A stretch of 64,000 bases of DNA from an uncultured Gammaproteobacteria bacterium (lineage in GTDB: Bacteria > Patescibacteriota > Patescibacteriia > Magasanikbacterales > UBA922), in contig CAYFPM010000001.1 of NCBI GenBank assembly GCA_964345045.1, positions 300,215-364,214 of the forward strand, given 5' to 3'. The notes beneath the pieces are model-generated. The model did no database searches. It was not told where the DNA came from and saw only the letters and a list, made by a program, of their open reading frames with translations. The stretch's first letter is position 1, and every line of letters starts with the position of its first letter. Below are positions 2,707 through 48,384 of the stretch, piece by piece. Both the position numbers and the translations under genes were made by a program.

Positions 2707-4320
2707 CTAGACCTCGTCTGCTTCTGTAAATTCGGCTTGAGCCGGTTTTATTTTTAACAATTTTTTCTCAAAAGCTTCTTTGAACTTTATCATTTCTTCT
2801 ACTTTTAGGATGTAACAAATATAAGCAAAAACCAAAATACCAGCTGTTCCGGCTACAAAACCTTGAGTTAAAATCCCCCAAAATTTGGTCATGTCAACAA
2901 GACTCGCAATTGGAGATTTTAGACTTTGAACTACAATCATCATAACAAGACCAGCTCCAGAAATTTTCAAAACACTCTCTACCATTTTTGACTCGTGCAA
3001 AGTACCAAGCTTGTCTCGCAGAGTTAACCACAATAGGGCTAGCTGAATAATCATGGCGAGTGAAAAAGCTAGAGCCAAGCCACTAACCCCTAAAATATTT
3101 TTGAGATAAATCCCGGCAATAATATTTATAAGCGAACTAACCAGGCCTACCAAAAAAGGTGTCCAAGTATCGTGTAGTACAAAAAAAGTGCGAACAAGTA
3201 ATGGAATAAGAGCTTGGGCAAAAAGTGACAGAGTAAAAAAAGCCAAGGTGTTGGCAGTGCGGATAGTATCTGACCAATCGAATTGACCACTACCCAAAAT
3301 CACACGCACAATTTGGGCGCGCAGCAGCAAGAAAATAATTGTCAGAGGAATTATAAAAAATATAATTTGTCGAATAGTTTGCGATAGGTGTTCGGTCATT
3401 TCTTCTTTCTTATCTTTTGCTACCAAGTGAGCTAGCGTGGGAAAAGCAGCAATAGCAAAGGATATCCCTATAATTCCAACCGGGAAATGTTGAATATTAT
3501 TGGCAAAATTAAACACCGCTACGCTACCAACTCCAACTGTAGAAGCAAAAATTGTTATGACAATTAAGTTAAGCTGGGTAGTAGCTAGTCCGAGGGTTCG
3601 GGGGATCATGAGTTTGCCAATTTTTTTGATATTTTTGTTTTGCCAAAAAAATTTGGGAGTGTAAGCAAAACCATGGTGGAGGAGGCTAGGTACTTGAATT
3701 AACAAATGTAGTAACGCTCCCAATATAACACCATAAGCCAATCCTATAATTCCAAAAACAGGTACAAAAACCAAGGCTCCAAAAATAATACCCAAGTTGT
3801 AAAAAATTGGAGTAAGTGAATAAACAAGAAAAGCTTTGAAAGATTGTAAAACACCACTAACAATAGAACTAAGACCAAGCAAAATTGGGCTAAGAAACAT
3901 GATTCTAGTTAGGCTAATAGTAGTTTGTAATTTTTCTACCGAAAAACCAGGAGCCAATAAAGGAACAATCTGTGGAGTAAAAATAAATAAAATAGTACAA
4001 ATAAAAATTAGGCTAATTCCCAAAATATTTATAATACCACTGGTTACTTGCCAAGCTTCTTTTTTGTCTTTGTTTAAAATTTTGGTGAAAATTGGGATAA
4101 AACCGGCCGAGAGCGCCCCAACAATTACCAGATTATACACTAAGTCCGGGATACGAAAAGCAGCAAAATAAGCATCCAAAATATCGCCGGCGCCAAATTG
4201 ATTGGCAAAAATACGATCACGTATAATGCCAATAAACCTACTTACAAAAGACGCCGCTCCAAGAATAATGGCGGCGCTGGTAATGGATTTACTTTGTGAG
4301 GTGAAAAGTCTTTTTATCAT
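2707..4320 (-). CDS. murJ: lipid II flippase MurJ/MviN
   Basis: 14-TM MOP-superfamily protein with the MurJ N-terminal signature (ILGAASFVSRFIGIIRDRIFANQFGAGDILDAYFAAFRIPD). Confidence 0.85.
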   Translation of the reverse strand: MIKRLFTSQSKSITSAAIILGAASFVSRFIGIIRDRIFANQFGAGDILDAYFAAFRIPDLVYNLVIVGALSAGFIPIFTKILNKDKKEAWQVTSGIINILGISLIFICTILFIFTPQIVPLLAPGFSVEKLQTTISLTRIMFLSPILLGLSSIVSGVLQSFKAFLVYSLTPIFYNLGIIFGALVFVPVFGIIGLAYGVILGALLHLLIQVPSLLHHGFAYTPKFFWQNKNIKKIGKLMIPRTLGLATTQLNLIVITIFASTVGVGSVAVFNFANNIQHFPVGIIGISFAIAAFPTLAHLVAKDKKEEMTEHLSQTIRQIIFFIIPLTIIFLLLRAQIVRVILGSGQFDWSDTIRTANTLAFFTLSLFAQALIPLLVRTFFVLHDTWTPFLVGLVSSLINIIAGIYLKNILGVSGLALAFSLAMIIQLALLWLTLRDKLGTLHESKMVESVLKISGAGLVMMIVVQSLKSPIASLVDMTKFWGILTQGFVAGTAGILVFAYICYILKVEEMIKFKEAFEKKLLKIKPAQAEFTEADEV

Positions 4321-4327
4321 ACAAAAC

Positions 4328-4405
4328 GTCATTCCCGTGAAAACGGGAATCTAGTAAAAGTAGAGTCGTTCTCTAAATCTGGATTCCCGCGTACGCGGGA
4401 ATGAC
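4328..4405. repeat. twin hairpins ATTCCCG-N-CGGGAAT inside an outer GTCATTCCC/GGGAATGAC inverted repeat (murJ-corA spacer)
   Basis: attcccgtgaaaacgggaat at 4331-4350 and attcccgcgtacgcgggaat at 4383-4402; likely the corA terminator. Confidence 0.55.
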
Positions 4406-4425
4406 AACTAGGAAAAATAATACTA

Positions 4426-5346
4426 TTACAACAACTTCTTTTTCCTCATTATTACAATAAGAATGACAATTATAGCAGCCAAGCCAAGAAACATGCTCCA
4501 GACCCAAACCGGATTTTTGGCAAAAGGTAGACCCATTATATTCATACCATAGATACCAGAAAGAAGTGTAAGAGGAAGTAGGGAAACAGAAATAACAGTA
4601 AGAGCGCTGATCACTTTGTTGGTTCTTTGGTTAATCATAGATTCTACTGTAATATGCAAGCCATCTACCGTTTCTTTGTAACTTTCGATAATTGCCCAAA
4701 TTTTACTTAAGTAATCGTTAATATCATCAAAATAAAGACTTAATTTTTCGTCCAAAAAAGTTTTTCTTGTGTGAGAAAGATTGGCAATCATGAATTTTTG
4801 AGGTTCTAAAATTCTTCTAAATTGCAAAATGTTTCGGCGATGTATAGCCAGTTTACGAATAGTTTGAGGATCTTGTTCACCTTCAAAAATTTGATTTTCG
4901 GCAATAGAAAGCTGTTTCCCGATGTTGGTAAGGATTGGTCTGGTATTTTCTAGAAGAGCTTCGATTAGTCTGTATAGCAAGTAACCAGAACTTCCACTCA
5001 TCCAATCGGCTTTTATTTTTCTATTGTTCATGCAGCGGTAAAAAAAGTTTTTCATTTCTTTGCTTTTGCTACGTTGAATTGTAATGATAAAGTTGTCACC
5101 TATAAAAATATCGATTTCAAGTGGTTTGAGAGTTTGGATGTTGGCTTGCCAATGTGGAAAATGAAGAACAATAAAAAGATAGTTTTTGTAGGTATCTATC
5201 TTTGGGATTTGTTGTTCACTTTGGATATCTTCCAAATCCAAATGGTGGAAGTTGTAATTTTTTTTCAAAAAATCCAAAGATTCTTCGTCAATCTTGTCTA
5301 TGCTAACCCAAGTTAAGTTCTTTTGTGTTAGTGTTTTTATAGACAT
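4426..5346 (-). CDS. corA: CorA family magnesium/cobalt transporter
   Basis: Two C-terminal TM helices with the YGMNI (GMN) signature. Confidence 0.85.
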   Translation of the reverse strand: MSIKTLTQKNLTWVSIDKIDEESLDFLKKNYNFHHLDLEDIQSEQQIPKIDTYKNYLFIVLHFPHWQANIQTLKPLEIDIFIGDNFIITIQRSKSKEMKNFFYRCMNNRKIKADWMSGSSGYLLYRLIEALLENTRPILTNIGKQLSIAENQIFEGEQDPQTIRKLAIHRRNILQFRRILEPQKFMIANLSHTRKTFLDEKLSLYFDDINDYLSKIWAIIESYKETVDGLHITVESMINQRTNKVISALTVISVSLLPLTLLSGIYGMNIMGLPFAKNPVWVWSMFLGLAAIIVILIVIMRKKKLL

Positions 5347-5351
5347 AAAAT

Positions 5352-6023
5352 TTATTTTTCTTTTTCTAAATTTATAGTTACGATTACAAATTCTGTTCCT
5401 TCTGATTTTTCAAAACCTTTTATATATACTGCTCCGTCTATATTGTTTTTGTGAAAACTAAATTGTCTGGTTATTCCTTTGTCGGAAGTTACAATTACAT
5501 CAAAACCTTTTTTTCTTAATTCTGTTTTGTAATAAGAAGCTACAAACCAAGGTGTTGCCGGCAAGTCCCTCCATTCTATTTGGACAATATCTCTATGGTC
5601 GGCGATTGGTTCTTCTATTATTTTTCTAAAAGCATCTATATCTATATAAGATTTTTTGGTGCTGGTAGTGTCTTCGTCTCCCAAATGTTTTTCAAGCGTT
5701 ACCAAAATTGGTGACAAAATTATTTTTGGTATAACCACTGCTCTTTCTACAGCTTTGCTTCTATCTTTGCCTGCGGTAATAGCAATTTTTTCTATATTTT
5801 CTGTGTCATAAAGAGGGACAGATAATTCTACACTCCTAGGTAATTCTTTGGCTACTTTTACTTTTGGAGTGGTCGCAAACCTAATTAGAAATAGAGAGAT
5901 TATCAAAAAAATAAATATAAAAGCACAACCGGTGGTACAACTACGCCAAAAACAAGATTTCTTTTTGGATAGTTCCTGGATGGGCGGTTCTTTTATCTCT
6001 ACTTTTTCAATAATCTTTTCCAT
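5352..6023 (-). CDS. hypothetical membrane-anchored protein
   Basis: N-terminal TM helix and native codon usage; no recognisable domain. Confidence 0.45.
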   Translation of the reverse strand: MEKIIEKVEIKEPPIQELSKKKSCFWRSCTTGCAFIFIFLIISLFLIRFATTPKVKVAKELPRSVELSVPLYDTENIEKIAITAGKDRSKAVERAVVIPKIILSPILVTLEKHLGDEDTTSTKKSYIDIDAFRKIIEEPIADHRDIVQIEWRDLPATPWFVASYYKTELRKKGFDVIVTSDKGITRQFSFHKNNIDGAVYIKGFEKSEGTEFVIVTINLEKEK

Positions 6024-7568: not shown

Positions 7569-7583
7569 AGATAAAAAAACAGC

Positions 7584-7606
7584 CTGTAGGCTTTTATTAG
7601 ATTATT
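7584..7606 (+). terminator. stem-loop (cagcctgtaggct) with flanking A/T runs, after the beta-CASP RNase gene
   Basis: aaaaaaacagcctgtaggcttttatt. Confidence 0.4.
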
Positions 7607-8500
7607 GATGATGTGGACGAGGAGAGGACGCCGGCAACCTAGTGGTAATACCGGCGTCCTCTCTCGCACAACCTCTAGCAGGCAATGCCCCCATAGCCTG
7701 CGAGGATGATGATCCTCCTAGTTTTTCGCGGTGTGGGAACCGAGTGTCATTGCGGCCAATCAACAACACTCGGCTCCCAATCACCCAATCCGCTGTCTTC
7801 TTTTCACACCAGAAGGAGTCTTGGCGTTACTTTTTGAAGACCTTTTCTCCTTTTCTTCCTGCTAGAGAAAGGAGTTCCGGGATTGCTCGCCGAGCACGCA
7901 TGTTTTTTCCCGGGCGGAACGGTTTTAAACCGACAGCCTCGGCACGGCAGGAGTAGAACTCTCTGCCGTGCCGGGCTGCCTGTCGAGGTCGATTAGATTC
8001 CTCTCTGTTTTGCTCGAAGGTGAGGAAGCTAACATCTAGAATTTTCTCCTAGATACAGGTATGAGTCGCGGTAACCTGCCGACCGTGTGCAGTGTGTCCG
8101 TATACTGTCCAAGATCCTCCCACCCTTTGTATACAAACGACGTCGTGATCTTCCAGAGGGGAGAGGAAGATCCTGACTTGTCGCAGTTTTGCGGGTGGTG
8201 AATCAAGGTTAGTTGCGAAAACCAGCCGAGGTCGCCGGGGGGGACGACGCCAGCTGTCACACTGCTTGATTTTTAAGATTGAAAGATCGAGAAACCTATG
8301 GCTCCGGCAGACGTGTGACTGCCTGGTGAAGTTCATTGTGTTCGCCACAACGATCTGCCGGAGCCCGAGGCCCGCTCTTTTTGGGGCTACCAGGGAGGAG
8401 GTAGCCATGGCGTAGTGTAACCGGGTCGGGTTGCACCACTAGAGGTTACGCTTTGATCTTATCCCTGGGGAAGGTCTAAGACAGCCAAGTTTTTGGGGAC
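7607..8500. other. ~0.9 kb high-GC non-coding block (island A) with multiple strong hairpins; unassigned structured RNA or degraded foreign DNA
   Basis: GC ~55-60% against a ~35% background. The only ORFs are Arg/Cys-rich spurious frames. Hairpins include gagaggacgccgg..ccggcgtcctctc, ggcacggcag..ctgccgtgcc and ggctacc..ggtagcc. Confidence 0.4.
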
Positions 8501-14364: not shown

Positions 14365-14394
14365 TCCTGTATTTGCAAAGATACAGGGTTTTTT
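14365..14394 (+). terminator. rho-independent terminator of uvrA
   Basis: cctgtatttgcaaagatacagggtttttt. Confidence 0.6.
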
Positions 14395-14397
14395 ATG

Positions 14398-14426
14398 TTG
14401 ACAAAAAGAAAAAAGCATGATATACA
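14398..14426 (+). promoter_or_regulatory. sigma70-like promoter (TTGACA-17-TATACA) driving a leaderless high-GC small ORF
   Basis: ttgaca at 14398, 17-nt spacer, tataca at 14421; the ATG follows 7 nt downstream. Confidence 0.4.
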
Positions 14427-14432
14427 TTATTT

Positions 14433-14681
14433 ATGTTTTCCGTGAGCAAACTGATGATTCCCTCTCAAATCACCACCGACATCGCCGTCTTCATGATCTG
14501 GGGGTTCTTGATCGCCTCCATGTTGATCTCGATCATGACCTGGTGGAAGTTCTTCCCCTGGCCAACCTCGGTCTGGGCGCGCCGCATCTCGATCGGTGTC
14601 GGGCCGGTCATGTGGGGTGCCTTCTTCATCTTGGCAGCTGTGGTGTACCAGGGTCCGGTCGATCAGTTCGGTGGGCCGTAG
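14433..14681 (+). CDS. small 2-TM membrane protein (82 aa) in a high-GC cassette (island B); possible PLD-N/cardiolipin-synthase-N-like fold
   Basis: GC3-rich codons (atc/gcc/ttc/ctg) and two hydrophobic helices, GPVMWGAFFILAAVVYQG. The other long frames here are Arg/His-rich and spurious. Confidence 0.4.
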   Translation: MFSVSKLMIPSQITTDIAVFMIWGFLIASMLISIMTWWKFFPWPTSVWARRISIGVGPVMWGAFFILAAVVYQGPVDQFGGP

Positions 14682-14786
14682 AAGGTGCCCCTGCGGACGA
14701 CTTAGATGCGGGGAGACAGTGTGCGTGCACCTGTCAACCCGTGTCACCCTTCCTACAAACACTTTGGATAAGTGTTTTTTATATTG

Positions 14787-16001
14787 TCAAAAATTAGCAA
14801 TAAGGTTTTTAAAATCTTGTCTCTTTCTTATCAACCTAATATTTTCACCATCAATTAAAACCTCGGCGGGTAATGGTCTAAATTGATAATTGGTAGCCAT
14901 ACTCATACCATAGGCTCCGGCATTTTTTATTGCCAATATATCTCCTTCGCGGACTTCGTTTAGCATACGGTCTCTAGCAAAATAATCGGCACATTCACAA
15001 ATATTGCCAACCACATCATACTCTCTATACATGCCATCTGGATTACTCAAATTTACAATTGGATGGTAGGAATCATACATAGCCGGGCGGACCAGGTGGT
15101 TCATACCAGTATCTGTACCTACCACAGTATGGCGACTAATCGTTTCTTTGATTGTGTTTACTTTTGTTAACAAAGTTCCGGATTCGGCTACAATATATCT
15201 ACCAGGCTCAAATCTTAGTTGAATATTTCGATTATATTCAGATTCAAATCTATCCATTCTTTTTTTAATTTCTTTACCCAAAGTTTTCAAATCCAATCGA
15301 TTTTCTTCTGGTTTGTAAGGTACTCCAAAACCACCACCAACATCTACAAATTCTAGATTTGGAAATTGTTTGGCAATGTCTAGTATTACATCGAGTGCCA
15401 AAATCGGTTCTCGTAGTCGTAGCCAGCCAGAACCAATATGTTGGTGTACACCAACTATTTGTAGATTGTGTTTTGTAGCAATAATTTTTACTTTTTCTAC
15501 ATCTTGAAAAAAAATACCAAATTTGGAATTTGGTCCACCAGTTATATTTGATTCATGCGAAGCAATACCAATGTTTGGATTGAAACGAATAGAGATTCTA
15601 GAATTTGGGTAGTTTTTTCCATATTTTTCCAGTCTAGACAAAGAACCAATGTTTTGCAAAACTCCCAAGTTTTGGACTTCTTCCATCTCGGCATTGGTCA
15701 TGTTGTTGCCAGTAAACATAATATTTTCTGGTTTGGCGCCACAGTGCAGACCTAGTTTTACTTCTTCTACAGAAACAGCATCTATCCCACAGCCAAGTTT
15801 TATTATTTCTTTAACTATTGTTGGATTATAATTAGCTTTTATAGCGTACAAAAATTTGGTATTTTGGTGCAGACCCAGATAGTTTTGTAATTTTGCAATT
15901 CGGTTTTGGATTATTTGTAAATTGTAAACATAAAGCGGACTGCCAAAATGCTCGCAAAGTTCTGTGGGACTATAATTGTTAAATATTTCATTTTGGTTCA
16001 T
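14787..16001 (-). CDS. lysA: diaminopimelate decarboxylase (LysA)
   Basis: PLP-dependent Orn/DAP decarboxylase fold with YAIKAN PLP-lysine motif and GGG loop; native low GC. Confidence 0.9.
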   Translation of the reverse strand: MNQNEIFNNYSPTELCEHFGSPLYVYNLQIIQNRIAKLQNYLGLHQNTKFLYAIKANYNPTIVKEIIKLGCGIDAVSVEEVKLGLHCGAKPENIMFTGNNMTNAEMEEVQNLGVLQNIGSLSRLEKYGKNYPNSRISIRFNPNIGIASHESNITGGPNSKFGIFFQDVEKVKIIATKHNLQIVGVHQHIGSGWLRLREPILALDVILDIAKQFPNLEFVDVGGGFGVPYKPEENRLDLKTLGKEIKKRMDRFESEYNRNIQLRFEPGRYIVAESGTLLTKVNTIKETISRHTVVGTDTGMNHLVRPAMYDSYHPIVNLSNPDGMYREYDVVGNICECADYFARDRMLNEVREGDILAIKNAGAYGMSMATNYQFRPLPAEVLIDGENIRLIRKRQDFKNLIANF

Positions 16002-16335: not shown

Positions 16336-17157
16336 TCATGCTGCGATCCTCTCGGCCGTAGTCGAGATTACCGTACCAGCACGAGTACCGGTCATGGTGT
16401 TGCACACCTCGATCGGTACCAGGCCAGCGGCCAGCTCGACAGCTCGGGGGTGGACCACGCAGGCGTTGAGGGCAAGGAAGTTTGCCGGAGTGATCTCGGT
16501 GAACAATGTGGCATCGGCGTGTTGGTTGGGGTCTTTGTTGTAGACTCCGTCTACGTCGGTCCAGTTGCAGTGAGTAGCCGAGAGGGCCACGGCGAGTAGG
16601 CTTGCCGTTACATCCGAACCCCCACGCCCGAGCGTGATGACCCGGCCGTCTGCCGTAGCACCGTAGAAACCAGGCACGATCACCTGGTGACCATTGCATC
16701 GCTCGCGGATAAGTTGGTAGGTGGCTTCGAGGTCGATGTTGCCTTCGTCGTCCACACGGATCACATTGGCTGCGTCGACAAATTGGGAACCAGTAAGCTC
16801 GGCCATGATCTGAGCCATGAGCCACTCGCCGCGCGAGGCAGCCAAGTCGTAGCTAGACTTGATCTCAAAGCGAACCTGATTGAGAAGCTTCTCGATGTCG
16901 ATCGATAAGCCGAGCTCGGACACAATGCTCTCGAACCGAGCGACGATCGCGGCCCAGTTCGCCTCGAAGTCTTCGCCACGCTGGCAGGCAATGAAGCGGT
17001 CAGTGAGCTTGGTAGCATCGGCTGGCAACTTGCCCGGAGCCGAGCAAACGACTGCCTGGCAGCCGTGGTTGCTTTGGATGATCTCGAAAACCCGCCGGAC
17101 GTTTTGGGCACATGAAAGCGACGTGCCACCAAACTTGCAGATAGTTTTTTCGGTCAT
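16336..17157 (-). CDS. aspartate kinase catalytic (amino-acid kinase) domain, no ACT regulatory domains; high GC
   Basis: KFGGTSL and LGRGGSD aspartokinase motifs. Ends at the catalytic/ACT boundary (273 aa). Strong SD aggagggtg upstream. GC ~60%. Confidence 0.7.
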   Translation of the reverse strand: MTEKTICKFGGTSLSCAQNVRRVFEIIQSNHGCQAVVCSAPGKLPADATKLTDRFIACQRGEDFEANWAAIVARFESIVSELGLSIDIEKLLNQVRFEIKSSYDLAASRGEWLMAQIMAELTGSQFVDAANVIRVDDEGNIDLEATYQLIRERCNGHQVIVPGFYGATADGRVITLGRGGSDVTASLLAVALSATHCNWTDVDGVYNKDPNQHADATLFTEITPANFLALNACVVHPRAVELAAGLVPIEVCNTMTGTRAGTVISTTAERIAA

Positions 17158-17501: not shown

Positions 17502-18083
17502 ATGCCAGAAAAATATAAAAATAAATATCGGATACCATCAGCCAGATATAAAGGTTGGAATTATGGATGGGATGGATATTATTTTGTGACAATTTGTACA
17601 AAAAATAGGGAACATTTTTTTGGAAATATTGTGGAAGGGAAAATGATTTTGTCGGAAATTGGGGAAATGGTCGAAAAATATTGGTATGAAATTCCAAAAC
17701 ATTTTTCATTTGTACGGTTGGATGCGTTTGTGGTAATGCCGAACCATTTTCATGCCATTGTGATAATTGATAAAAATAATGATAAACCGGTAGAGACGCA
17801 TTGCAATGCGTCTCTACAACAACGGGATGTATATAAAAAATCAAATGATCATCGTGAATACCAAAATAAATTCGGCCCGCAAAAACACAATTTGGCGTCC
17901 ATAATTCGTGGTTTCAAAGGGACGGTAACCAAACAGGTCAACGAAAGATTTGGTGATGAATATTTCGCCTGGCAACCCCGATTCCACGAACACATTATCC
18001 GCAACGAAATAGCGTTGGAAAGAATTCGTAAATATATAAAATTAAATCCTTGGAAATGGCAAGATGATTGTTTTTTCAAATAA
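17502..18083 (+). CDS. REP-associated tyrosine transposase (RAYT) / IS200-like Y1 HUH transposase
   Basis: YYFVTICTKNRE, HuH motif NHFHAIV, WQPRFHEHIIRNE...IRKYIKLNPWKW tyrosine region. Confidence 0.75.
   Translation: MPEKYKNKYRIPSARYKGWNYGWDGYYFVTICTKNREHFFGNIVEGKMILSEIGEMVEKYWYEIPKHFSFVRLDAFVVMPNHFHAIVIIDKNNDKPVETHCNASLQQRDVYKKSNDHREYQNKFGPQKHNLASIIRGFKGTVTKQVNERFGDEYFAWQPRFHEHIIRNEIALERIRKYIKLNPWKWQDDCFFK
17790..17817. repeat. 28-nt perfect palindrome inside the RAYT ORF
   Basis: GTAGAGACGCATTGCAATGCGTCTCTAC, encoding VETHCNASLQ between the HuH and Tyr regions. Confidence 0.6.
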
Positions 18084-18085
18084 TT

Positions 18086-19477
18086 ATGTCTACAAAAATT
18101 CAAAAAAAATTAAAAAATCTTCCAGATACACCGGGTATCTATCTTTTTTATAATTTCAAAAAAGAATTAGTCTATGTAGGCAAAGCCACTTCTCTAAAAA
18201 GTAGAGTTAGAAGTTACTTCAACAGTGGTAACAAAACTAGCCGACCAATAGAAGCACTGATTCACGAAGTGGCAGATATAAAATGGAAAGAAGCAGACTC
18301 TGTACTAGAAGCCATAATAATGGAAGCCAACCATATAAAAAAATATCAACCCAAATATAATGTAGACGGTAAAGATGATAAAAGTTGGAATTATATTGTA
18401 ATAACCAAAGACGAGTATCCACGTGTAGAGACTGTGCGACAACATGAGCTTGAAAATGTACGAAATACTAAAGATACGAAATTACGAAAATTTAACGAAG
18501 TGTTTGGGCCATATCCTGGGTTGAATACCAAAGAGACTTTGAAATTGCTAAGAAAGATTTTTACTTATTCAACCTGTCAAAGCAAGAAAGCAAAAAAACA
18601 AGAAAGCAAAAAAGTTAAGCCATGTTTTTATTATCAACTAGGGCAGTGTTTGGGGGTGTGTACTGGCGAGATAAGTTCTACAGAATACAAAGCAAAAGTA
18701 ATTAGGCCTTTGAAAACTTTTCTTGGTGGTAGAAAAAAGCAACTTATAAAAAGTTTGGAAGTAAAAATGAGAAAGGAGTCTAAGCTAGAGAATTTCGAAG
18801 AAGCAGCCAGACTTCGCAACCAGATATCGGCTTTGCAAAGGATTCATGATGTGGCGCTTTTGAATAAATCGTTTGTAGATACCCCCTCAGGCCTGCGGCC
18901 AGCTCCCCCTAAACCCTCACCCGGACGCCCTGCGGTCGTTTCGACCTCTCCCAGAGGGAGAGGTGAAAACTCTGATTCTAGAAAAGAAGTTATTAGAATA
19001 GAAGGCTACGATATTTCTAATTTTGGTGCTACTGGCAAAGTGGGGTCGATGGTGGTCTTTGAATTTGGCGAAGCCAAGAAAAAAGATTACAGAAAATTTA
19101 AAATTAAATCTGTAGTAGGGCAGAGTGATGTGGATTGTCTCGAGGAAGTTCTTGAACGCAGACTGCGTCACGCAAAAAGCAAAGAGCAAGGAACAAAGAA
19201 CAAGAAAGATTTTTGGCCTTTGCCGCAAGTATTTTTGATTGATGGTGGTAAGCCGCAGGTTAACCGGGCAAAGAAAGTTTTGAAAGATAATAAAGTGGAT
19301 GTGCCGGTGGTGGGGATTGCCAAGGGGCCAGATAGAAAAAAAAATGAATTTATATTGGGGAGTAAGAATAAAGACTTTGTTAAATGGGTTTATTCTAATC
19401 AAAAATTGTTAATCGCGGTGCGCGACGAGGCTCATCGGTTTGCAATTGCTTATCAGCGAAAATTACGAAAATTATAA
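18086..19477 (+). CDS. uvrC: excinuclease ABC subunit C (UvrC), short form without C-terminal (HhH)2, carrying an in-frame GC-rich insertion
   Basis: GIY-YIG (PGIYLFYN...VYVGKA), UvrBC-binding region, RNaseH-like endonuclease (DEAHRFAI); extra DTPSGLRPAPPKPSPGRPAVVSTSPRGRGENSDSRK. Confidence 0.9.
   Translation: MSTKIQKKLKNLPDTPGIYLFYNFKKELVYVGKATSLKSRVRSYFNSGNKTSRPIEALIHEVADIKWKEADSVLEAIIMEANHIKKYQPKYNVDGKDDKSWNYIVITKDEYPRVETVRQHELENVRNTKDTKLRKFNEVFGPYPGLNTKETLKLLRKIFTYSTCQSKKAKKQESKKVKPCFYYQLGQCLGVCTGEISSTEYKAKVIRPLKTFLGGRKKQLIKSLEVKMRKESKLENFEEAARLRNQISALQRIHDVALLNKSFVDTPSGLRPAPPKPSPGRPAVVSTSPRGRGENSDSRKEVIRIEGYDISNFGATGKVGSMVVFEFGEAKKKDYRKFKIKSVVGQSDVDCLEEVLERRLRHAKSKEQGTKNKKDFWPLPQVFLIDGGKPQVNRAKKVLKDNKVDVPVVGIAKGPDRKKNEFILGSKNKDFVKWVYSNQKLLIAVRDEAHRFAIAYQRKLRKL
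18868..18957. repeat. GC-rich composite palindromic element inserted in-frame in uvrC
   Basis: ccccctcaggcctgcggccagctccccctaaaccctcacccgg...cgacctctcccagagggagaggtg. Left half matches the uvrB element and right half the uvrA element. Confidence 0.7.
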
Positions 19478-19608
19478 GAACAAAAAACGACCGGAAGGTC
19501 GTTTTTTGTTCTATCTGTATATTTTTACAAATATACAAAATGGTGTGGGTGCAAGCAACGAATTGCTTGCACCAGAATTCCTTTGTAGCTCTAGTGCCAT
19601 AGAGCCGA

Positions 19609-19680
19609 TGGGGCGGGCCGGAATCGAACCGGAGACTCTCTGACGGACGTCAGGCGCTTTCCCAATTAAGCTACCGCTCC
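19609..19680 (-). tRNA. tRNA-like gene with atypical anticodon arm (possibly Gly-UCC-like); CCA not encoded
   Basis: Acceptor GGAGCGG/CCGCCCC (one A-C mismatch), D arm GCTT-AATTGGGA-AAGC, T arm with TTCGATT loop. The anticodon region CTGACGTCCGTCAG folds as a tight palindrome and gives a 6-nt loop under the standard template. Confidence 0.45.
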
Positions 19681-19931
19681 TAGTTGTGTTTGTAGAACCT
19701 TGTCTACTTTTTTACGATTCTATCGTTTCCTACCCAGCCAATCACCTCGACGAGTAGGAGGCAGCCACGTAATCCTAATCGGAGGGAGTTTATGACCACA
19801 GCTTCGGTGGCTTTGTAGGCCAATGTGCCTTTTTGGAGGCGACATCCGGATTTCTCTTGGTTTTGCATACTAAAATCATTATCACAAAAAAAAGTAAATG
19901 TCAATAGCAAAAATGTTTTTTGTTTAGTATC

Positions 19932-19960
19932 TTGACAATTTAATAAAATTGTGTTAATAA
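19932..19960 (+). promoter_or_regulatory. candidate promoter (TTGACA-17-TAATAA) for the high-GC small ORF
   Basis: ttgaca at 19932; weak -10. Confidence 0.3.
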
Positions 19961-19998
19961 AAATATATTCTCGTTTAGAGATGGAAGGAGCTAATAGA

Positions 19999-20208
19999 AT
20001 GACTAACGTTACGTACGAGACCTGCCCGGGGTGTGGTGGTACCAGGTCAAGGGGTCACTACGGTGGCACCAGGTGTCCCCGCTGTTCCAGGAATGCTCGC
20101 GAGTCCAGGCGTCGCACCGCCGCCGCGATCGGTGACGCAATCATCGAGGGGCCAATCGCGGTTGTCAAGGGCGTGAGGAGCGTCTTCAGGTTCTTAAACC
20201 AGCTCTGA
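19999..20208 (+). CDS. small Arg-rich zinc-ribbon protein (CPGCGG...CPRC), high GC (island D)
   Basis: SD ggaaggag 8 nt upstream of ATG; CxxC-x14-CxxC; GC ~62%; its own terminators follow. Confidence 0.45.
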   Translation: MTNVTYETCPGCGGTRSRGHYGGTRCPRCSRNARESRRRTAAAIGDAIIEGPIAVVKGVRSVFRFLNQL

Positions 20209-20247
20209 CCGCCAGGTCCAGGTTCTGCGAGAGCAACCGAGAATGCG

Positions 20248-20312
20248 GGAGCACGATTAGTCGTGCTCCTGCCTCAAACTTCAATTTGTTACAGCCTGTA
20301 GGCTGTTTTTTT
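20248..20312 (+). terminator. two consecutive hairpins (ggagcacga..tcgtgctcc; acagcctgtaggctgt + T7) ending island D
   Basis: The second hairpin core cagcctgtaggct is identical to the one at 7590. Confidence 0.5.
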
Positions 20313-20359
20313 GTTTACAAATAAACTAAATTTTTATCCACAAAAGTGGGTATTTGTGG

Positions 20360-20388
20360 TTGTTGCATAAATAAAAGTGGTGTATAAT
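20360..20388 (+). promoter_or_regulatory. mraZ promoter (TTGTTG-17-TATAAT)
   Basis: tataat at 20383, ~80 nt upstream of the mraZ ATG. Confidence 0.4.
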
Positions 20389-20467
20389 GGATGCAGGTGG
20401 GGAAAAGTGGGGAAAATCCTTTCAATCGTTCCGACCTCTACTTCTAGTAGAGGCAAAGTTGCTAACC

Positions 20468-20899
20468 ATGTTCATCGGCGAATATACACACAATCTGGAC
20501 GAAAAAGGCCGTTTGGCAGTCCCAAAGAAATTTCGGGCAGATTTGTCAAAAGGTGCTGTAGTAACCAGAGGATTAGACAACTGTTTGTTTCTATATACCC
20601 AAAAAGAATGGAAAAACTTGGCCGAGAAATTGGCTAGCCTCCCATTTGCCCAGGCCAATACCCGCGCTTTTGCCAGACTAATGCTGGCTGGTGCCATGGA
20701 TGTAAAAGTAGACAAACAAGGCAGAATAATTTTGCCAGATTACCTTCGTAGTTTTGCTGGTCTCAAGAAAAATACAATTGTAGCCGGTCTATACAACCGC
20801 CTAGAAATATGGGATCAGAAAAAATGGGAAGATTACAAAAAGAAATCAGAAACACAGAGCACAGAGATAGCCGAACAAATGGCTGAGCTCGGAATTTAA
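20468..20899 (+). CDS. mraZ: division/cell wall cluster transcriptional regulator MraZ
   Basis: MFIGEYTHNLDEKGRLAVPKKFR duplicated MraZ/SpoVT-AbrB motifs. Confidence 0.85.
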   Translation: MFIGEYTHNLDEKGRLAVPKKFRADLSKGAVVTRGLDNCLFLYTQKEWKNLAEKLASLPFAQANTRAFARLMLAGAMDVKVDKQGRIILPDYLRSFAGLKKNTIVAGLYNRLEIWDQKKWEDYKKKSETQSTEIAEQMAELGI

Positions 20900-21020
20900 A
20901 AGAATAGAATTAACTTGTCATTTCGAGGAGGTACGACGAGAAATCTTTCTGACTAATAACTAACTAAAAAGTTGTTGCACGGAAAGATTCCTCGCTACGC
21001 TCGGAATGACTGAATTTACT

Positions 21021-38018: not shown

Positions 38019-38729
38019 TTAGTTATCGAGGGCTTTTCTGGCGTCTAGCTTTTGGAGCAGGCTGCGAATCCCAAAGGGAATGGCAATCGCCCCGGCGACT
38101 GTAGCCACGTAGAGCGGCCAAGTGCCTACGCTTTGGTCGGCGTATAGAATGCCTCCCACCAGAATCAGCTCTGCTACCATCTTGATCTTGCCAGATAGCT
38201 TGGCTTTGAGATCCAGCTGTTTGCCGGATTCGAGAGCCACAGCTTCTTTGTTGGATTGGTAGTCCTCCACTCGGATAACCAAGAGTGCCATTTCGAGTAG
38301 AAAGAGGGCTGTACAGACCATAACCTCTGCACTCACAAGGAGTGGAGGAGGTTTTATCTCTATTTGCTTGGTGCAGATCAGTGACAGGAGTAACAAGAAA
38401 TACACCTTGTCGCCGACAGCATCGACATACGCGCCGTAATCTCCGGCGGTGCCTTTGGCTCTTGCCACCAGTCCATCGACGTAGTCGAGAAAACTGTTGG
38501 CGGTGTAGGCCAGCAAGATCAAGCTCATGTAGAGCAGGTTTTCGCTGTAGCGAATACTGGCAAGGCCAATGGGAATGGCCATGACCACCCGAAAGTAGGT
38601 GATCCGGTTGGCCGTGATCCAGCTGGGCAGCCTCTTGGCAGCGGGGATGAAGGTGCGGTCAAGCCAGGAATATCCCCGGCCGAAACCACTTTCGATCGAG
38701 GTGGCGAGGGTCGTCGTGTCCTGGCTCAT
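38019..38729 (-). CDS. CDP-alcohol phosphatidyltransferase paralog, high GC (~58%) (island F)
   Basis: LDYVDGLVARAKGTAGDYGAYVDAVGDKV motif; convergent with the native paralog; AT-rich SD aaggaagg upstream. Confidence 0.75.
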   Translation of the reverse strand: MSQDTTTLATSIESGFGRGYSWLDRTFIPAAKRLPSWITANRITYFRVVMAIPIGLASIRYSENLLYMSLILLAYTANSFLDYVDGLVARAKGTAGDYGAYVDAVGDKVYFLLLLSLICTKQIEIKPPPLLVSAEVMVCTALFLLEMALLVIRVEDYQSNKEAVALESGKQLDLKAKLSGKIKMVAELILVGGILYADQSVGTWPLYVATVAGAIAIPFGIRSLLQKLDARKALDN

Positions 38730-45028: not shown

Positions 45029-45868
45029 ATGAGTGACAAAAAAGGAAAAGTAGAAGTCACTGAGCAGGTTCATCTCGGACGATCTTGGAGGGTAGGTGAA
45101 GCGTACGATCCTGGTTCCGATATGCCCACGGGTATGGAGGAAGTGCCGAAAGACTTCCTTGACGATGATGGTGCTACGGAGGATGAGCCTGACGATACAG
45201 AGGTTCAACTGGTTCGTCCGCTCACAGACAGCCAAGTGGATCAGCCTGCCCCCGCCGGGCTGGGCTACTACGATGAGCCTCCTACGGAGGAGGGCCCCCC
45301 TCTTCCTTCGGAATCGCCTGCTGTGGTCTCTATCCCCACCGATACGCTCGTGCAGCAACCGGCATTGAGTTGGTGGCAGATTCCTGGCAACTGGGTCAAG
45401 GTGGTGACTATCTTGCTCGTTTTTGTCGTGGCTCTTTTGTTGGGCATGCTCAACAAAAAGTCGGATGAAGAGATCAAGGCTGAACCGCTTGATCAAGCTG
45501 CCCCGGCAAGTAAGCTGGTAGACATTCCCGATGATCCCCCTGTGGCTACGTCGGCGGTCGCTACCGCCCCAGATGCTGGAGTGATGCCCGAGGATCCTCC
45601 TCGGGTAGCTCCAGTGCTCAGGAGGAGTGGTCCTGATGCGGGAGTGAAGAAGGCGGTCAAGAGGAAGGCAAAGAAACGTCGGGAGAAACGCAAGAAGAAA
45701 CCGGCGAAAGATCCAGAAGAAACTACTACCACCCACCAACTTTTGCCTGGAGAGTCTGTCGAAGACTACTGTGACCGGTGGTCTGCCAAAACTTTTTCCA
45801 GCCCTGGCTTGGCTAGGATTGGCGCTTACAAAAGCTGTGTCAAGGAATTGAAAGGAGGAGGCAAATGA
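45029..45868 (+). CDS. single-pass membrane protein with acidic Pro-rich N-region and Lys-rich C-region; high GC (island E gene 1)
   Basis: SD gaaggagg upstream. The first ~14 codons are AT-rich and then GC rises to ~62%. One TM helix (VKVVTILLVFVVALLLGML). Confidence 0.5.
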   Translation: MSDKKGKVEVTEQVHLGRSWRVGEAYDPGSDMPTGMEEVPKDFLDDDGATEDEPDDTEVQLVRPLTDSQVDQPAPAGLGYYDEPPTEEGPPLPSESPAVVSIPTDTLVQQPALSWWQIPGNWVKVVTILLVFVVALLLGMLNKKSDEEIKAEPLDQAAPASKLVDIPDDPPVATSAVATAPDAGVMPEDPPRVAPVLRRSGPDAGVKKAVKRKAKKRREKRKKKPAKDPEETTTTHQLLPGESVEDYCDRWSAKTFSSPGLARIGAYKSCVKELKGGGK

Positions 45869-46791
45869 GAGCCTTCGTGATTGCTATCTTTTTGGTTTTT
45901 TCTTCCAGCTTGATGGCGCAAGCCTCTGACTGGAAGGACGTTCTGCATCTCCCTCCGAAAGATCCGGGCAGCCCACGATTGGTGGGCAAGGCAGCCGACG
46001 TCATGGGGGCTTTGGCTCACTGTCAGCAAGAAGTCCGTTGTCAGATCTTGGTGAAGGAGGATAAGCCCGGTGGGACTGAGTATGGGAATATGTGGCACGA
46101 GGAGTGTTACGAACTTCTCAACTCGGCCGCGATCATGAAACCAGGGCCGGAAACTTGGTTCGTCTCGGAAAAAGACGAGATGGTGGTAGCGATAGATGAT
46201 CCTGGCTCTGGTGGCCACGAAGGTGCTGTGATCAAGTGCCGAGTAGATCCCAAGCCGGCTACCATGCCCTCTATGCCATCGTCACCCCCACCAACCGTAG
46301 CCAAAGCGGTCGAACTTCAAGGTGAGAGCGATTTCAAGTTCGCCCTCACAGTCGACTTCGGAGTCGGTTTCTCACGACTCGATCCGTCGCCGGACCATTA
46401 CTTCGACGGTACGGTCGGCATCGGAGGACTGCTCTTGATCAATGATTTCTGGGAGGTCGCTCTCCGAATCGACTTTGGTGGGACATTCCGCGAGGGACAG
46501 ACGTGGTACTTCGTACCACAGCTCTCTGGCGGGGTGCGACCGGCCGACTGGATATACTTCGGCGTCTTTGGGCGCCTTGGTGGTGCAACCCAGGGATCCT
46601 ACTGGGGTAACCTAGGATTTGGAGTACGGGTGTACCCGCTCAAGATCTTCGGATCGGAGTTCCCGTTGGCTGTCTTCTTCGAGACCGATGCCCTTGGGCG
46701 TCAGGTCACACCGGAGACCGAGACCCACAACCCTGGCGATCAGGGGCGCATGGGCCTGCGCGGTGGTCTACGCTACGAAGCTTTTTTCTAA
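45865..46791 (+). CDS. secreted protein with beta-barrel-like C-terminus ending ...YEAFF (island E gene 2)
   Basis: Signal peptide MRAFVIAIFLVFSSSLMAQA; Gly/aromatic-rich alternating pattern; terminal Phe like OMP beta-barrels; ATGA overlap with gene 1. Confidence 0.5.
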   Translation: MRAFVIAIFLVFSSSLMAQASDWKDVLHLPPKDPGSPRLVGKAADVMGALAHCQQEVRCQILVKEDKPGGTEYGNMWHEECYELLNSAAIMKPGPETWFVSEKDEMVVAIDDPGSGGHEGAVIKCRVDPKPATMPSMPSSPPPTVAKAVELQGESDFKFALTVDFGVGFSRLDPSPDHYFDGTVGIGGLLLINDFWEVALRIDFGGTFREGQTWYFVPQLSGGVRPADWIYFGVFGRLGGATQGSYWGNLGFGVRVYPLKIFGSEFPLAVFFETDALGRQVTPETETHNPGDQGRMGLRGGLRYEAFF

Positions 46792-46911
46792 CGTTCATTT
46801 TTTGGCGGATGAGATCTTTCGAGATCCATCCGCCCCGTTCACATGTTCAGCATTGCAAATGCTGTGCAGGTGTTGGGTAACGCTCTTTCAAATTTTGGAA
46901 AGGAAAACAAG

Positions 46912-48384
46912 ATGAAGAAGATCGCTTTGGCCGTCTTGGCCGCACTGTTCACCTCCACCGGCTGCGAGGTGGTAAACCTCGGCAGCCCGGGTATGGCGCC
47001 GACTGAGAAGCACTTCGTGCAGTATGACGGCGGAGATCTCGACGCAGGTTTCATCGTCGGCGACGACGTGGGGCCCATCGATATGGGCTTCATCGACGCT
47101 GGCTACGATGTCGGCTTCCGCGACGCCAACCTCGACGCAGAGGCAATGGATGCGATCGCTGACGCCGACGTGACCGATGTCTACGACGACGTTGGGTTCG
47201 CTGATGCAGAAGCAGATTCTGGTCTGGACGACAGCGGGGTTCACCCCGATGCCGACTTGCCGGACGCGATCGTAGACTCGGGACCCGAGGATACTGGCGT
47301 CCACCCGGACGCCTTTGTCCCCGACATGGGTTTCCCAGACGCCGAGCCGATCGACGCCGTGATCCATCCCGATGCGGAGATTACGGACAATGGAATCCAC
47401 TTTGACGCCACAGTATACCCCGATGCTACGCCAGACACAGGGTTCCCAGACAGCGGCTTTGCCGACTCTGGGACTCTGGATTCTGGACTCGACGCTGGGG
47501 TTATCGACGGTGGTGGCCCGCCTGTTTGTCCGGCCGGGTTCATCTATGTAGCTCCTGGTTCGTTCACTATGGGGACTCCGGCTGCAGCACCGTGGTTCTC
47601 CTCGCCAGAAGGACCGCAACACCAGGTCAGTTTGACCTATGGCTACATCATGGGGGAGACCGAGGTAACCAGAGCCCAGCTGCAAGCAGTGTTGGGCATT
47701 GCTCGAGATCCTTCTTGGAACACCGGCTGTGGGGCAAATTGCCCGGCTACCAACGTGAGCTGGGACCTGGCGGCCGAGTATGCCAATGCTCTTTCTATTA
47801 GCCAAGGTCTGTCTCCATGCTACGCTGGCTCTGCCGGGAGCTACACTTTCGTAGGACTCTCGTGTACTGGCTGGCGTATGCCGACCGAGGCCGAGTGGGA
47901 ATTTGCCGCTCGAGCTGGTAGTACCACTGCCTTTTGGAATGGTGACCCAGTGAACTTCTCCTCGGGGAGTGCTATGACAACCTTTGGTGAGCCTGGGCAT
48001 GCAATTGCCTGGTGGTTGGCCAATAGTCAGGTAGCCTACACTCCAGCTGTGGACACGTTCACGGCTCCGGACAATGGATTTACCATGGCTGGTACGCACC
48101 CGGTAGCCACCAAGACCCCCAATCCGCTCGGTCTCTATGACATGAACGGCAACGTCTGGGAGCTTACCTCGGATTGTTGGACGCAGACCTACCCGGGATC
48201 AAATCCCAGAACCAATCCGGTGACCGGGGCTGGTACCCGGTGTGCCAGTATTGTGAGGCGTGGAGGAAGTTTTGCCGACCCGCAAAGCTCCTTGCACAAC
48301 TCCACTAGGTTTGGAGATTTCCCGCATGTTCAGAATCCTCTCAATGGTTTCCGGATAGCGCGTAATCACCCGGCCTGCCAGTAG
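46912..48384 (+). CDS. lipoprotein with Asp-rich HPDA repeats and C-terminal FGE-sulfatase (SUMF1/DUF323) domain (island E gene 3)
   Basis: Lipobox LFTSTGC; GSFTMGTP...TNVSWDLAAEYANALS...GWRMPTEAEWEFAARAG...YDMNGNVWELTSDCW...RGGSF. Confidence 0.7.
   Translation: MKKIALAVLAALFTSTGCEVVNLGSPGMAPTEKHFVQYDGGDLDAGFIVGDDVGPIDMGFIDAGYDVGFRDANLDAEAMDAIADADVTDVYDDVGFADAEADSGLDDSGVHPDADLPDAIVDSGPEDTGVHPDAFVPDMGFPDAEPIDAVIHPDAEITDNGIHFDATVYPDATPDTGFPDSGFADSGTLDSGLDAGVIDGGGPPVCPAGFIYVAPGSFTMGTPAAAPWFSSPEGPQHQVSLTYGYIMGETEVTRAQLQAVLGIARDPSWNTGCGANCPATNVSWDLAAEYANALSISQGLSPCYAGSAGSYTFVGLSCTGWRMPTEAEWEFAARAGSTTAFWNGDPVNFSSGSAMTTFGEPGHAIAWWLANSQVAYTPAVDTFTAPDNGFTMAGTHPVATKTPNPLGLYDMNGNVWELTSDCWTQTYPGSNPRTNPVTGAGTRCASIVRRGGSFADPQSSLHNSTRFGDFPHVQNPLNGFRIARNHPACQ

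Follow-up and report, generated by a model that had tools for sequence, protein, structure and literature searches.

A probable insertion cassette with a tRNA-like gene and an orphan zinc-knuckle mini-gene between uvrC and mraZ in a Magasanikbacteria-like genome

In a 64,000-nucleotide (nt) stretch of metagenome-derived bacterial DNA (GenBank assembly GCA_964345045.1, contig CAYFPM010000001.1, positions 300,215 to 364,214; hereafter the window), a transfer RNA (tRNA)-like gene lies close to a GC-rich mini-gene encoding a zinc-ribbon-like protein, and the locus can be compared with several kinds of described element. In tRNA-targeted genomic islands, a tyrosine integrase uses an attachment (att) site at the tRNA 3′-end, and integrases leave islands at the 3′ side of the reconstituted tRNA. 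Other points of comparison are tRNA pseudogenes or relics, and small non-autonomous cassettes, either resembling miniature inverted-repeat transposable elements (MITEs) or flanked by att sites without an integrase. Lastly, the bacterial Y RNAs YrlA and Yrn1 have tRNA-like domains, that of Yrn1 with a 5-bp ‘anticodon’ stem and a 6-nt loop, and a criterion for a Y RNA is that it is encoded beside a Ro60/TROVE gene (PMC4201824). We find that the reading which best accounts for the locus, and which we hold to be the probable one, is a lineage-specific, non-autonomous insertion cassette that carries a decoding-dead tRNA relic and an orphan zinc-knuckle mini-protein with foreign codon usage. By itself such a block matters little. 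It would be a modest lineage-specific insertion and not a classic tRNA-targeted island.

Extra DNA between uvrC and mraZ

The window has a GC content of ∼35%, and its gene content points to the Patescibacteria, with Candidatus Magasanikbacteria as the nearest group; apart from the organism's own copies, relatives of its UvrC are at most 66% identical. The locus is the spacer from uvrC (18068/18089–19477) to mraZ (20468–20899), which is 990 nt long. In one relative (L007, UvrC 66% identical), uvrC is followed after 195 nt by mraZ, rsmH, an ftsL-like gene, a small open reading frame (ORF) and clpB, the same gene order as in the window, and in another (L042, UvrC 61%, a 474-kb contig), uvrC is followed after 172 nt by mraZ with the same downstream order. 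Since neither relative has a tRNA between uvrC and mraZ, the tRNA-like gene is part of the extra DNA. Homology between the window and the relatives picks up again at about 20328.

The extra DNA is bracketed by an 18-nt direct repeat on the plus strand, whose left copy (TTTACAAATATACAAAAT, 19524–19541) and right copy (TTTACAAATAAACTAAAT, 20314–20331) are identical at 16 of 18 positions. A flank match this good was attained in none of 1000 shuffles in one set and 1 of 200 in another, and by 10 of 1500 pairs of real AT-rich segments (0.7%), while the GC-rich ORF by itself has a flank match of only 13/18 and no comparable bracket. Removing positions 19542–20313 (772 bp) together with one repeat copy, ∼790 extra bases, leaves ∼200 nt, so collapsing the block and one copy of the repeat restores the ancestral spacing. 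From the spacing in the relatives and the bracketing repeat, it follows that the inserted unit is the whole 772-bp block, tRNA-like gene included, and because that gene lies inside the bracket it is cargo, not an integration target. An earlier description of the locus, made from the letters of the window only (hereafter the sequence-only reading), had taken the mini-gene region for foreign-looking inserted DNA, which is borne out by the spacer lengths (990 versus 172–195 nt) and by the foreign codon usage described below.

In the reading that we favor, positions 19542–20313 and one 18-nt repeat copy would have been inserted into a short uvrC–mraZ spacer in a Magasanikbacteria-like genome. The block would hold two transcription units, back to back and read outward from an AT-rich promoter core of 140 bp, each finishing in its own hairpin or terminator at the block edge. 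The leftward unit would produce a leader of ∼190 nt and then a tRNA-shaped RNA that keeps the elbow formed by the acceptor, T and D arms, but that could not read codons, given its four non-canonical pairs and an anticodon arm with a 6-nt loop or a tetraloop; most likely, this is a decaying tRNA gene that came along with the inserted DNA. The rightward unit would encode a 69-residue, highly basic zinc-knuckle protein that is probably expressed.

The sequence-only reading had instead seen the classic signature of a genomic island, in which a resident tRNA gene would be the attachment site and the zinc-ribbon gene the remnant of an island integrated beside it. The locus does resemble tRNA-targeted islands in having a tRNA-like gene by compositionally foreign DNA and a short bracketing repeat, and the defects in the anticodon loop and between the two halves of the RNA (A3·C70 and C27·A43) could in principle mark a hybrid tRNA made by integration. 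Unlike in such islands, the repeat here is not derived from the tRNA and encloses the tRNA-like gene, and that gene is missing at the syntenic site in L007 and L042. The att repeat expected to match the tRNA end did not materialize: no k-mer of at least 9 nt from the tRNA-like gene recurs within 19400–20500, none of at least 16 nt recurs in the 64 kb, and a BLAST search with the gene against the rest of the window gave no match. There is no integrase or recombinase in the block, where the only ORF of note is that of the 69-aa protein and the other frames are without family matches. In addition, the mini-gene lies on the 5′ side of the tRNA-like gene, not the 3′ side, with its start 318 nt from the tRNA 5′-end and not ∼250 bp as first described. 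The tRNA-targeted island model is therefore largely refuted, and we consider it very unlikely. Equally, neither a normal 7-nt anticodon loop nor conservation of the island in relatives was seen, and the truth lies between a tRNA-targeted island and the ordinary tRNA beside resident DNA that those features would have indicated. The heuristic of ‘tRNA plus foreign DNA’ can be misleading where the tRNA itself is the cargo.

A different explanation is that the block is ancestral to the lineage and that the sampled relatives have lost it from the spacer; its high GC content would then arise from protein composition and RNA structure and would not point to a foreign origin. This would be compatible with the distance of the relatives (UvrC ≤66%), with the host-like promoter core, Shine–Dalgarno sequence and terminators, and with the variability of the spacer in a third relative, L008. 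However, two independent relatives share the tight 172–195-nt spacing and a conserved mraZ promoter architecture, collapsing the repeat gives the ancestral spacer length, and a homolog of the protein was found in no other Patescibacteria. The GC content at third codon positions (GC3) of the mini-gene, 0.73, and its choice of AGG and ATC codons are also features of synonymous sites, for which amino-acid content is no explanation. Loss of an ancestral block is, in our judgment, improbable.

A sequencing or assembly artefact, whether the loss of 1 nt from a normal tRNA or the chimeric joining of DNA of high and low GC content, could be suspected in a metagenome-derived window, particularly as two short contigs stop inside the block. 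Four per-run assemblies (L001, L006, L044 and L045, all from one ENA project) match the window across the block or parts of it. L001 covers 19806–20916 and L006 ends within the tRNA-like gene, odd loop included, whereas L044 (134 kb) and L045 (41 kb) cross the entire block, L044 with 1 mismatch over 12.8 kb and L045 with none over 9.4 kb. The sequence of the tRNA-like gene is the same in L006, L044 and L045, and the site of the loop is not a homopolymer. Because assemblies of four runs reproduce the sequence, an artefact is excluded to all practical purposes.

Several points nonetheless weigh against the insertion cassette as we read it. No donor, second copy or empty-site allele was found, so the direction of the event, gain or loss, rests on the two relatives (UvrC 61–66%) and on composition. 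The AT-rich promoter core looks native, and hence the composition of the block is not uniform. The 18-nt repeat sits in AT-rich sequence of terminator or promoter type, in which similar motifs are recurrent, and its significance is moderate, about 0.5–3% depending on the null. The promoter-like site, clean hairpins and intact elbow of the leftward unit would also be compatible with a tRNA mimic that is kept for its function. Finally, the four assemblies represent a single population and bring no sequence diversity in which selection on the protein or covariation in the RNA could show.

The block is like MITE-like elements and integrase-less att-flanked cassettes in being shorter than 1 kb, in lacking a mobility gene and in having a short imperfect direct repeat. 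Like other small non-autonomous cassettes, it occupies an intergenic spacer directly after a terminator, in this case the native bidirectional terminator that follows uvrC (19477–19512; a 16-bp stem with an A-run and a T-run), which lies outside the insertion. Unlike MITE-like cassettes, it is without terminal inverted repeats and has no second copy in the window, and its duplication of 18 nt (perhaps about 28 nt) is longer than usual target-site duplications. A blastn search of the block against phage and plasmid collections gave no match.

The neighbors of the block are a Y1_Tnp-like gene, uvrC, mraZ, rsmH, an ftsL-like ORF and clpB. The first of these, a gene of 193 aa with a Y1_Tnp (IS200-like) domain (17502–18083, plus strand), abuts and overlaps the start of uvrC; it is missing at this position in L007 and L042 and is not homologous to an ORF of the same size in L008, and is thus also lineage-specific. 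No link was found between this gene and the block, and it lies outside the bracketing repeats. Mobilization of the IS200/IS605 type by the Y1_Tnp-like gene was considered and rejected: the hairpins at the two ends are not alike, and there is a duplication at the flanks, although the IS200/IS605 family produces none.

On the other side of the block, a native palindrome upstream of mraZ (TATCCAC-AAAA-GTGGGTA, 20335–20352) is conserved in L007 and L008 and partly in L042, and is followed by GTGG(G) boxes at 20397–20416; although it looks terminator-like in a scan, it is not the terminator of the mini-gene. The whole architecture, in which repeated (A)AAGTGG(G) boxes and a TATAAT come after TATCCAC-N4-GTGGRTA (window 20335–20416, L007 9564–9650, L008 5383–5470), probably serves as the MraZ operator/promoter and is common to relatives whose UvrC is about 60% identical. 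At the same junction, L008 (UvrC 60%) has a different 1.4-kb set of small ORFs (4087–5520), two of them GC-rich (59 and 52 aa) and one of low GC that encodes a 71-aa Zn_ribbon_13 protein, with bracketing repeats too weak to count. The block shares no sequence with the different insertions at this junction in L008, L041 and L043. Since L008 holds different small ORFs that are unrelated to the block, mini-genes seem to land recurrently in the uvrC–mraZ spacer.

The tRNA-like gene and its leader

The tRNA-like gene is 72 nt long and lies on the minus strand (19609–19680), as placed by Rfam RF00005 and, at a relaxed threshold, by ARAGORN. It is the single RF00005 match in the 64 kb, with 44.1 bits (E 4e-6) where the gathering score is 29, in accordance with the earlier description of it as the sole tRNA-like sequence in the window. 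ARAGORN reports nothing in the 64 kb at default settings, and at an 80% threshold it reports exactly this element as ‘tRNA-???(tc)’, that is, with a 6-nt loop and a two-base anticodon. The Gly-UCC-like 6-nt loop that had been suggested is thus recovered at the relaxed threshold as regards its size, but the isotype is unassignable.

In the Rfam alignment, the cloverleaf is one base short of the standard, and the missing base is in the anticodon loop, CGUCCG (6 nt); RNAfold closes the arm further, to a 5-bp stem CUGAC/GUCAG with a GUCC tetraloop. A 7-nt anticodon loop was obtained in no register, and no register provides a U33 or purine-37 context. The aberrant anticodon arm noted before is therefore real, and so is the suspicion that the gene is noncanonical or damaged, given the short loop, the stem mismatches and the negative default ARAGORN result. 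Calling the acceptor, D and T arms good was slightly generous: the elbow invariants are kept (U8, A14, G18, G19 and the T-loop UUCGAUU with U54–A58), while A3·C70, C27·A43 and U49·C65 are mismatched and the Levitt pair, A15·C48, is non-canonical. CCA is not encoded, and the stability of the cloverleaf is not above that of shuffles (z −0.19). The RNA could adopt a tRNA-like L-shape, yet without a usable anticodon loop. This corrects an annotation trap, as the gene passes the Rfam tRNA model yet could not decode.

We considered whether the gene could be a working decoder all the same: despite its 6-nt anticodon loop, the tRNA might read codons in an unconventional way, such as two-base decoding or frameshifting. 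The relaxed ARAGORN run does model a tRNA with a two-base anticodon ‘tc’, and it should be noted that the acceptor and T arms suffice for the 44 bits. Against such a role stand the lack of a U33 or purine-37 context in all registers, the closure of the loop to a stable tetraloop hairpin, the four further non-canonical pairs, the absence of relatives and a location in a recent insertion and not among translation genes. Decoding by this RNA appears extremely unlikely.

The gene resembles tRNA pseudogenes and relics in passing a general tRNA covariance model and failing a strict finder, in having defects spread over several stems and an unusable anticodon loop, and in lying in lineage-specific DNA. 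The scattered defects look like decay. It differs in features that a relic can do without, namely a promoter-like site of its own, flanking hairpins and a long leader, and in that no parent tRNA or isotype can be identified. In searches for relatives, the pattern of the anticodon arm, with loops of 4–9 nt, gave one chance match in a coding region (L009, JGI metagenomes) and none in IMG/VR, and the 5′ half of the gene gave no match. The T-arm/acceptor string, which is generic, was found at 31 viral loci, every one an unrelated ordinary tRNA or 3′ half; for this reason, the isotype is not inferable. A literature search on 6-nt anticodon loops and on GC islands in Magasanikbacteria returned nothing.

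A promoter-like site (TTGACA-18-AATGAT, 19875–19904, minus strand, a 10/12 match) faces the tRNA-like gene and is separated from it by a moderately GC-rich leader of ∼188 nt (19681–19868), in which there is no codon periodicity (p about 0.29), no family match and no remarkable folding (z −0.9). A coding relic in the leader was rejected, with periodicity and family matches both absent. The AT-rich core at 19862–19998 (20–28% GC) carries this site and a second one diverging from it toward the mini-gene, their −35 boxes 28 bp apart. Directly 3′ of the tRNA-like gene is a short hairpin, GCUCUA-UGGCAC-UAGAGC (19588–19605, minus strand), and ∼35 nt past the end of the gene is a perfect 11-bp hairpin, GGUGCAAGCAA-UUCG-UUGCUUGCACC (19548–19573, minus strand), a possible terminator of the minus-strand unit, with a U-rich tail that begins 6 nt past the stem.

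This arrangement raises the main alternative, that the RNA is a functional tRNA mimic under maintenance, and that the block is a two-component RNA–protein module. Such an RNA might act as a decoy or scaffold for tRNA-binding enzymes, as an RNase P signal that frees the ∼190-nt leader, or as the RNA partner of the zinc-finger protein. The decoding end alone would be altered in an RNA that keeps its elbow invariants and 7-bp acceptor stem, the unit has its own promoter-like site with hairpins downstream, and the partner inserted with it is a zinc-knuckle protein of charge +8. A precedent is the Deinococcus radiodurans Yrn1, a tRNA-like non-coding RNA whose ‘anticodon’ loop has 6 nt on a stem of 5 bp (PMC4201824). 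Like the Y RNAs, the element is non-decoding and keeps D- and T-arm elbow features, but the other hallmarks are missing: no Ro60/TROVE gene is among the neighbors of the tRNA-like gene, the motif GNCGAAN0-1G occurs on neither strand of 19478–19905, no Rfam Y RNA family matches the gene at E up to 1, and its topology is that of an ordinary tRNA, with ends at the acceptor stem, where YrlA is permuted. Mismatches across three stems plus the Levitt pair form the pattern expected of decay, neither the cloverleaf nor the leader folds beyond shuffles, and selection is unsupported since neither component has a homolog anywhere searched. Complementarity between the two transcripts does not exceed 10 nt, and for that same reason a type I toxin–antitoxin arrangement of the divergent transcripts was rejected. 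A maintained mimic is unlikely on this evidence, and we retain the decaying tRNA relic.

The zinc-knuckle mini-gene

The mini-gene (19999–20208, plus strand) encodes a zinc-ribbon/treble-clef-like protein of 69 aa with CPGC-x16-CPRC followed by two predicted helices, which confirms the Arg-rich CPGC…CPRC protein at 62% GC of the sequence-only reading. The protein has 11 Arg and a net charge of ∼+8. That the mini-gene is coding is supported by three features: a Shine–Dalgarno site (AAGGAG, 19985–19990) 8 nt upstream of the ATG, a periodicity of GC by codon position (0.50/0.63/0.73) that was equaled in 16 of 2000 shuffles, and the paired CxxC motifs, since CxxC-x(8–30)-CxxC within an open frame arose in 10 of 3000 shuffles. 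Length alone is not significant, as an open frame of at least 69 aa is present in 83% of dinucleotide shuffles. A structured-RNA reading of the region was rejected in favor of coding, because on both strands folding is no better than in shuffles (z −1.2 and −0.08).

The codon usage of the mini-gene is foreign. AGG is used for 7 of its 11 Arg and ATC for 4 of its 4 Ile, whereas neighboring host genes use AGA (56, versus 7 AGG) and ATT or ATA.

The promoter that had been proposed for the mini-gene is supported by a site with an extended −10 element (TTGACA-17-TGtTAATAA, TGn; 19932–19960, plus strand), which was read from the sequence and faces the mini-gene; a promoter scan with a stricter rule lists a weaker overlapping site instead. 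The twin terminators claimed downstream were half right. ACAGCC-TGTA-GGCTGT followed by T7 (20291–20312, plus strand) is a true intrinsic terminator, picked up by a terminator scan, whereas the GC-rich hairpin in the 3′ untranslated region, GCGGGAGCACGA-TTAG-TCGTGCTCCTGC (20245–20272, plus strand), has no U-tract. The terminator hairpin, CAGCCTGTAGGCT(G/T) with a T-run in transcript orientation, occurs at 20292–20305 and again at 7580–7593, where it ends a candidate structured RNA at 7.6–8.45 kb (see below), and nowhere else in the window; the expected chance count of this sharing is about 0.13 at ≤2 mismatches.

Homologs of the protein were looked for at several depths. In a search of 5.8 billion clusters, the sole match was a 100% identical copy from the same project. 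An exhaustive HMMER search of 1.84 billion representatives otherwise returned only multi-repeat proteins that share an ‘H-x-x-G-x-x-C-P-x-C’ knuckle, which are DUF4379/CapR/DUF723 treble-clef repeat proteins. The match to one of these (P0002, DUF4379/DUF723/CapR) reaches a library-wide E of 1.5e-9 when summed over 5 repeats, and its best single unit gives 33 bits with 42% identity over 43 residues. No Pfam, NCBIfam, PHROG or PADLOC threshold was passed; the best Pfam match, Zn_ribbon_TFIIB, scores 17.6 bits, under the cutoff of 22, and DUF4379, CapR and DUF723 are not among the Pfam matches even at E up to 10. A translated scan of IMG/VR and a search of PDB sequences gave only weak motif-level matches. 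In a single-sequence AlphaFold (AF2) model, with a predicted local distance difference test (pLDDT) score of 69, the protein is folded as a short hairpin plus two helices, and Foldseek found nothing below E = 1 for this model in the PDB.

By these searches, the mini-protein is an orphan with no homolog outside its own population. It shares with DUF4379/CapR/DUF723 modules a C-P-x…H-x-x-G-x-x-C-P-x-C knuckle and then a basic helix; unlike those proteins, which have 300–700 aa and multiple repeats, it stands solo at 69 aa, its first knuckle is CPGC where theirs is CPxHG, and it reaches no Pfam threshold. Given this distant likeness to one treble-clef repeat unit of the DUF4379/CapR/DUF723 type known from phage and conflict systems, the protein is probably a small nucleic-acid-binding protein. 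It lends itself to inexpensive tests of expression and RNA binding.

Other GC-rich segments in the window

The block gains interest when it is placed among the other GC-rich pieces, from 85 nt to 3.5 kb, of this 35% GC genome, some of which are bracketed by repeats and whose genes are without close relatives. A 318-bp segment with 58% GC (island B, 14451–14768; region 14388–14791) has the same layout as the mini-gene region, with a native terminator, a TTGACA promoter, an ORF and a short terminator. The ORF encodes a hydrophobic protein of 82 aa (14433–14681, plus strand; GC3 0.84); in the public annotation, an ORF of 111 aa is called on the other strand instead, a choice that the GC3 pattern disfavors. 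Just past a terminator, the segment is bracketed by GTTTTTTATGTTGACAAA and GTTTTTTATATTGTCAAA, which match at 16 of 18 positions (1 of 200 shuffles) and differ in sequence from the repeats around the 772-bp block.

These likenesses allow a bolder proposal, that the block is a mobile two-gene module in which a non-decoding tRNA-shaped RNA and a basic zinc-finger mini-protein jointly titrate or mark, for example, a tRNA-recognizing factor, and that it represents a broader group of small GC-rich cassettes whose insertion sites in Patescibacteria lie just past terminators and which duplicate ∼18–28 nt of the target, with island B, at 14.4 kb, having the same bracket. We regard this proposal as speculative and distinctly improbable. 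If it is true that small cassettes enter reduced genomes close to terminators, this would bear on how orphan genes are acquired in the candidate phyla radiation (CPR).

Larger coding islands of high GC (54–59%) lie at 16336–17157 (minus strand), 38019–38729 (minus strand) and 45029–48384 (plus strand). They encode, respectively, a truncated amino-acid kinase without ACT domains, a CDP-alcohol phosphatidyltransferase, and three ORFs that include a protein with an FGE-sulfatase domain. Repeats bracketing these islands are not significant, and their codon bias is not shared with the mini-gene. The nearest homologs of the kinase are about 40% identical, and none is above about 42%. A common donor for all high-GC islands was rejected on these grounds, the differing codon biases and the distance of the kinase homologs.

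Within uvrC, the part that encodes the naturally variable UvrC linker holds an ∼85-nt segment at 65–77% GC (18880–18965), which has the appearance of a GC-rich mini-insertion in frame. The segment codes for TPSGLRPAPPKPSPGRPAVVSTSPRGRGE, and within it is a perfect hairpin, CCTCTCCC-AGA-GGGAGAGG.

A further segment of ∼850 nt with 54% GC (7575–8450, minus strand) lies downstream of an RNase J-like gene, to which it is convergent. ORFs above 120 aa, codon-phase periodicity and Rfam matches (E up to 0.1) are all absent. For the minus strand, the folding energy is −367 kcal/mol, versus −265 kcal/mol for shuffles (z −11.8), compared with a z of −4.9 for the plus strand, and the segment terminates at a bidirectional terminator. 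The segment at 7.6–8.45 kb is a candidate large structured non-coding RNA, and is probably a more interesting lead than the locus of the tRNA-like gene and mini-gene.

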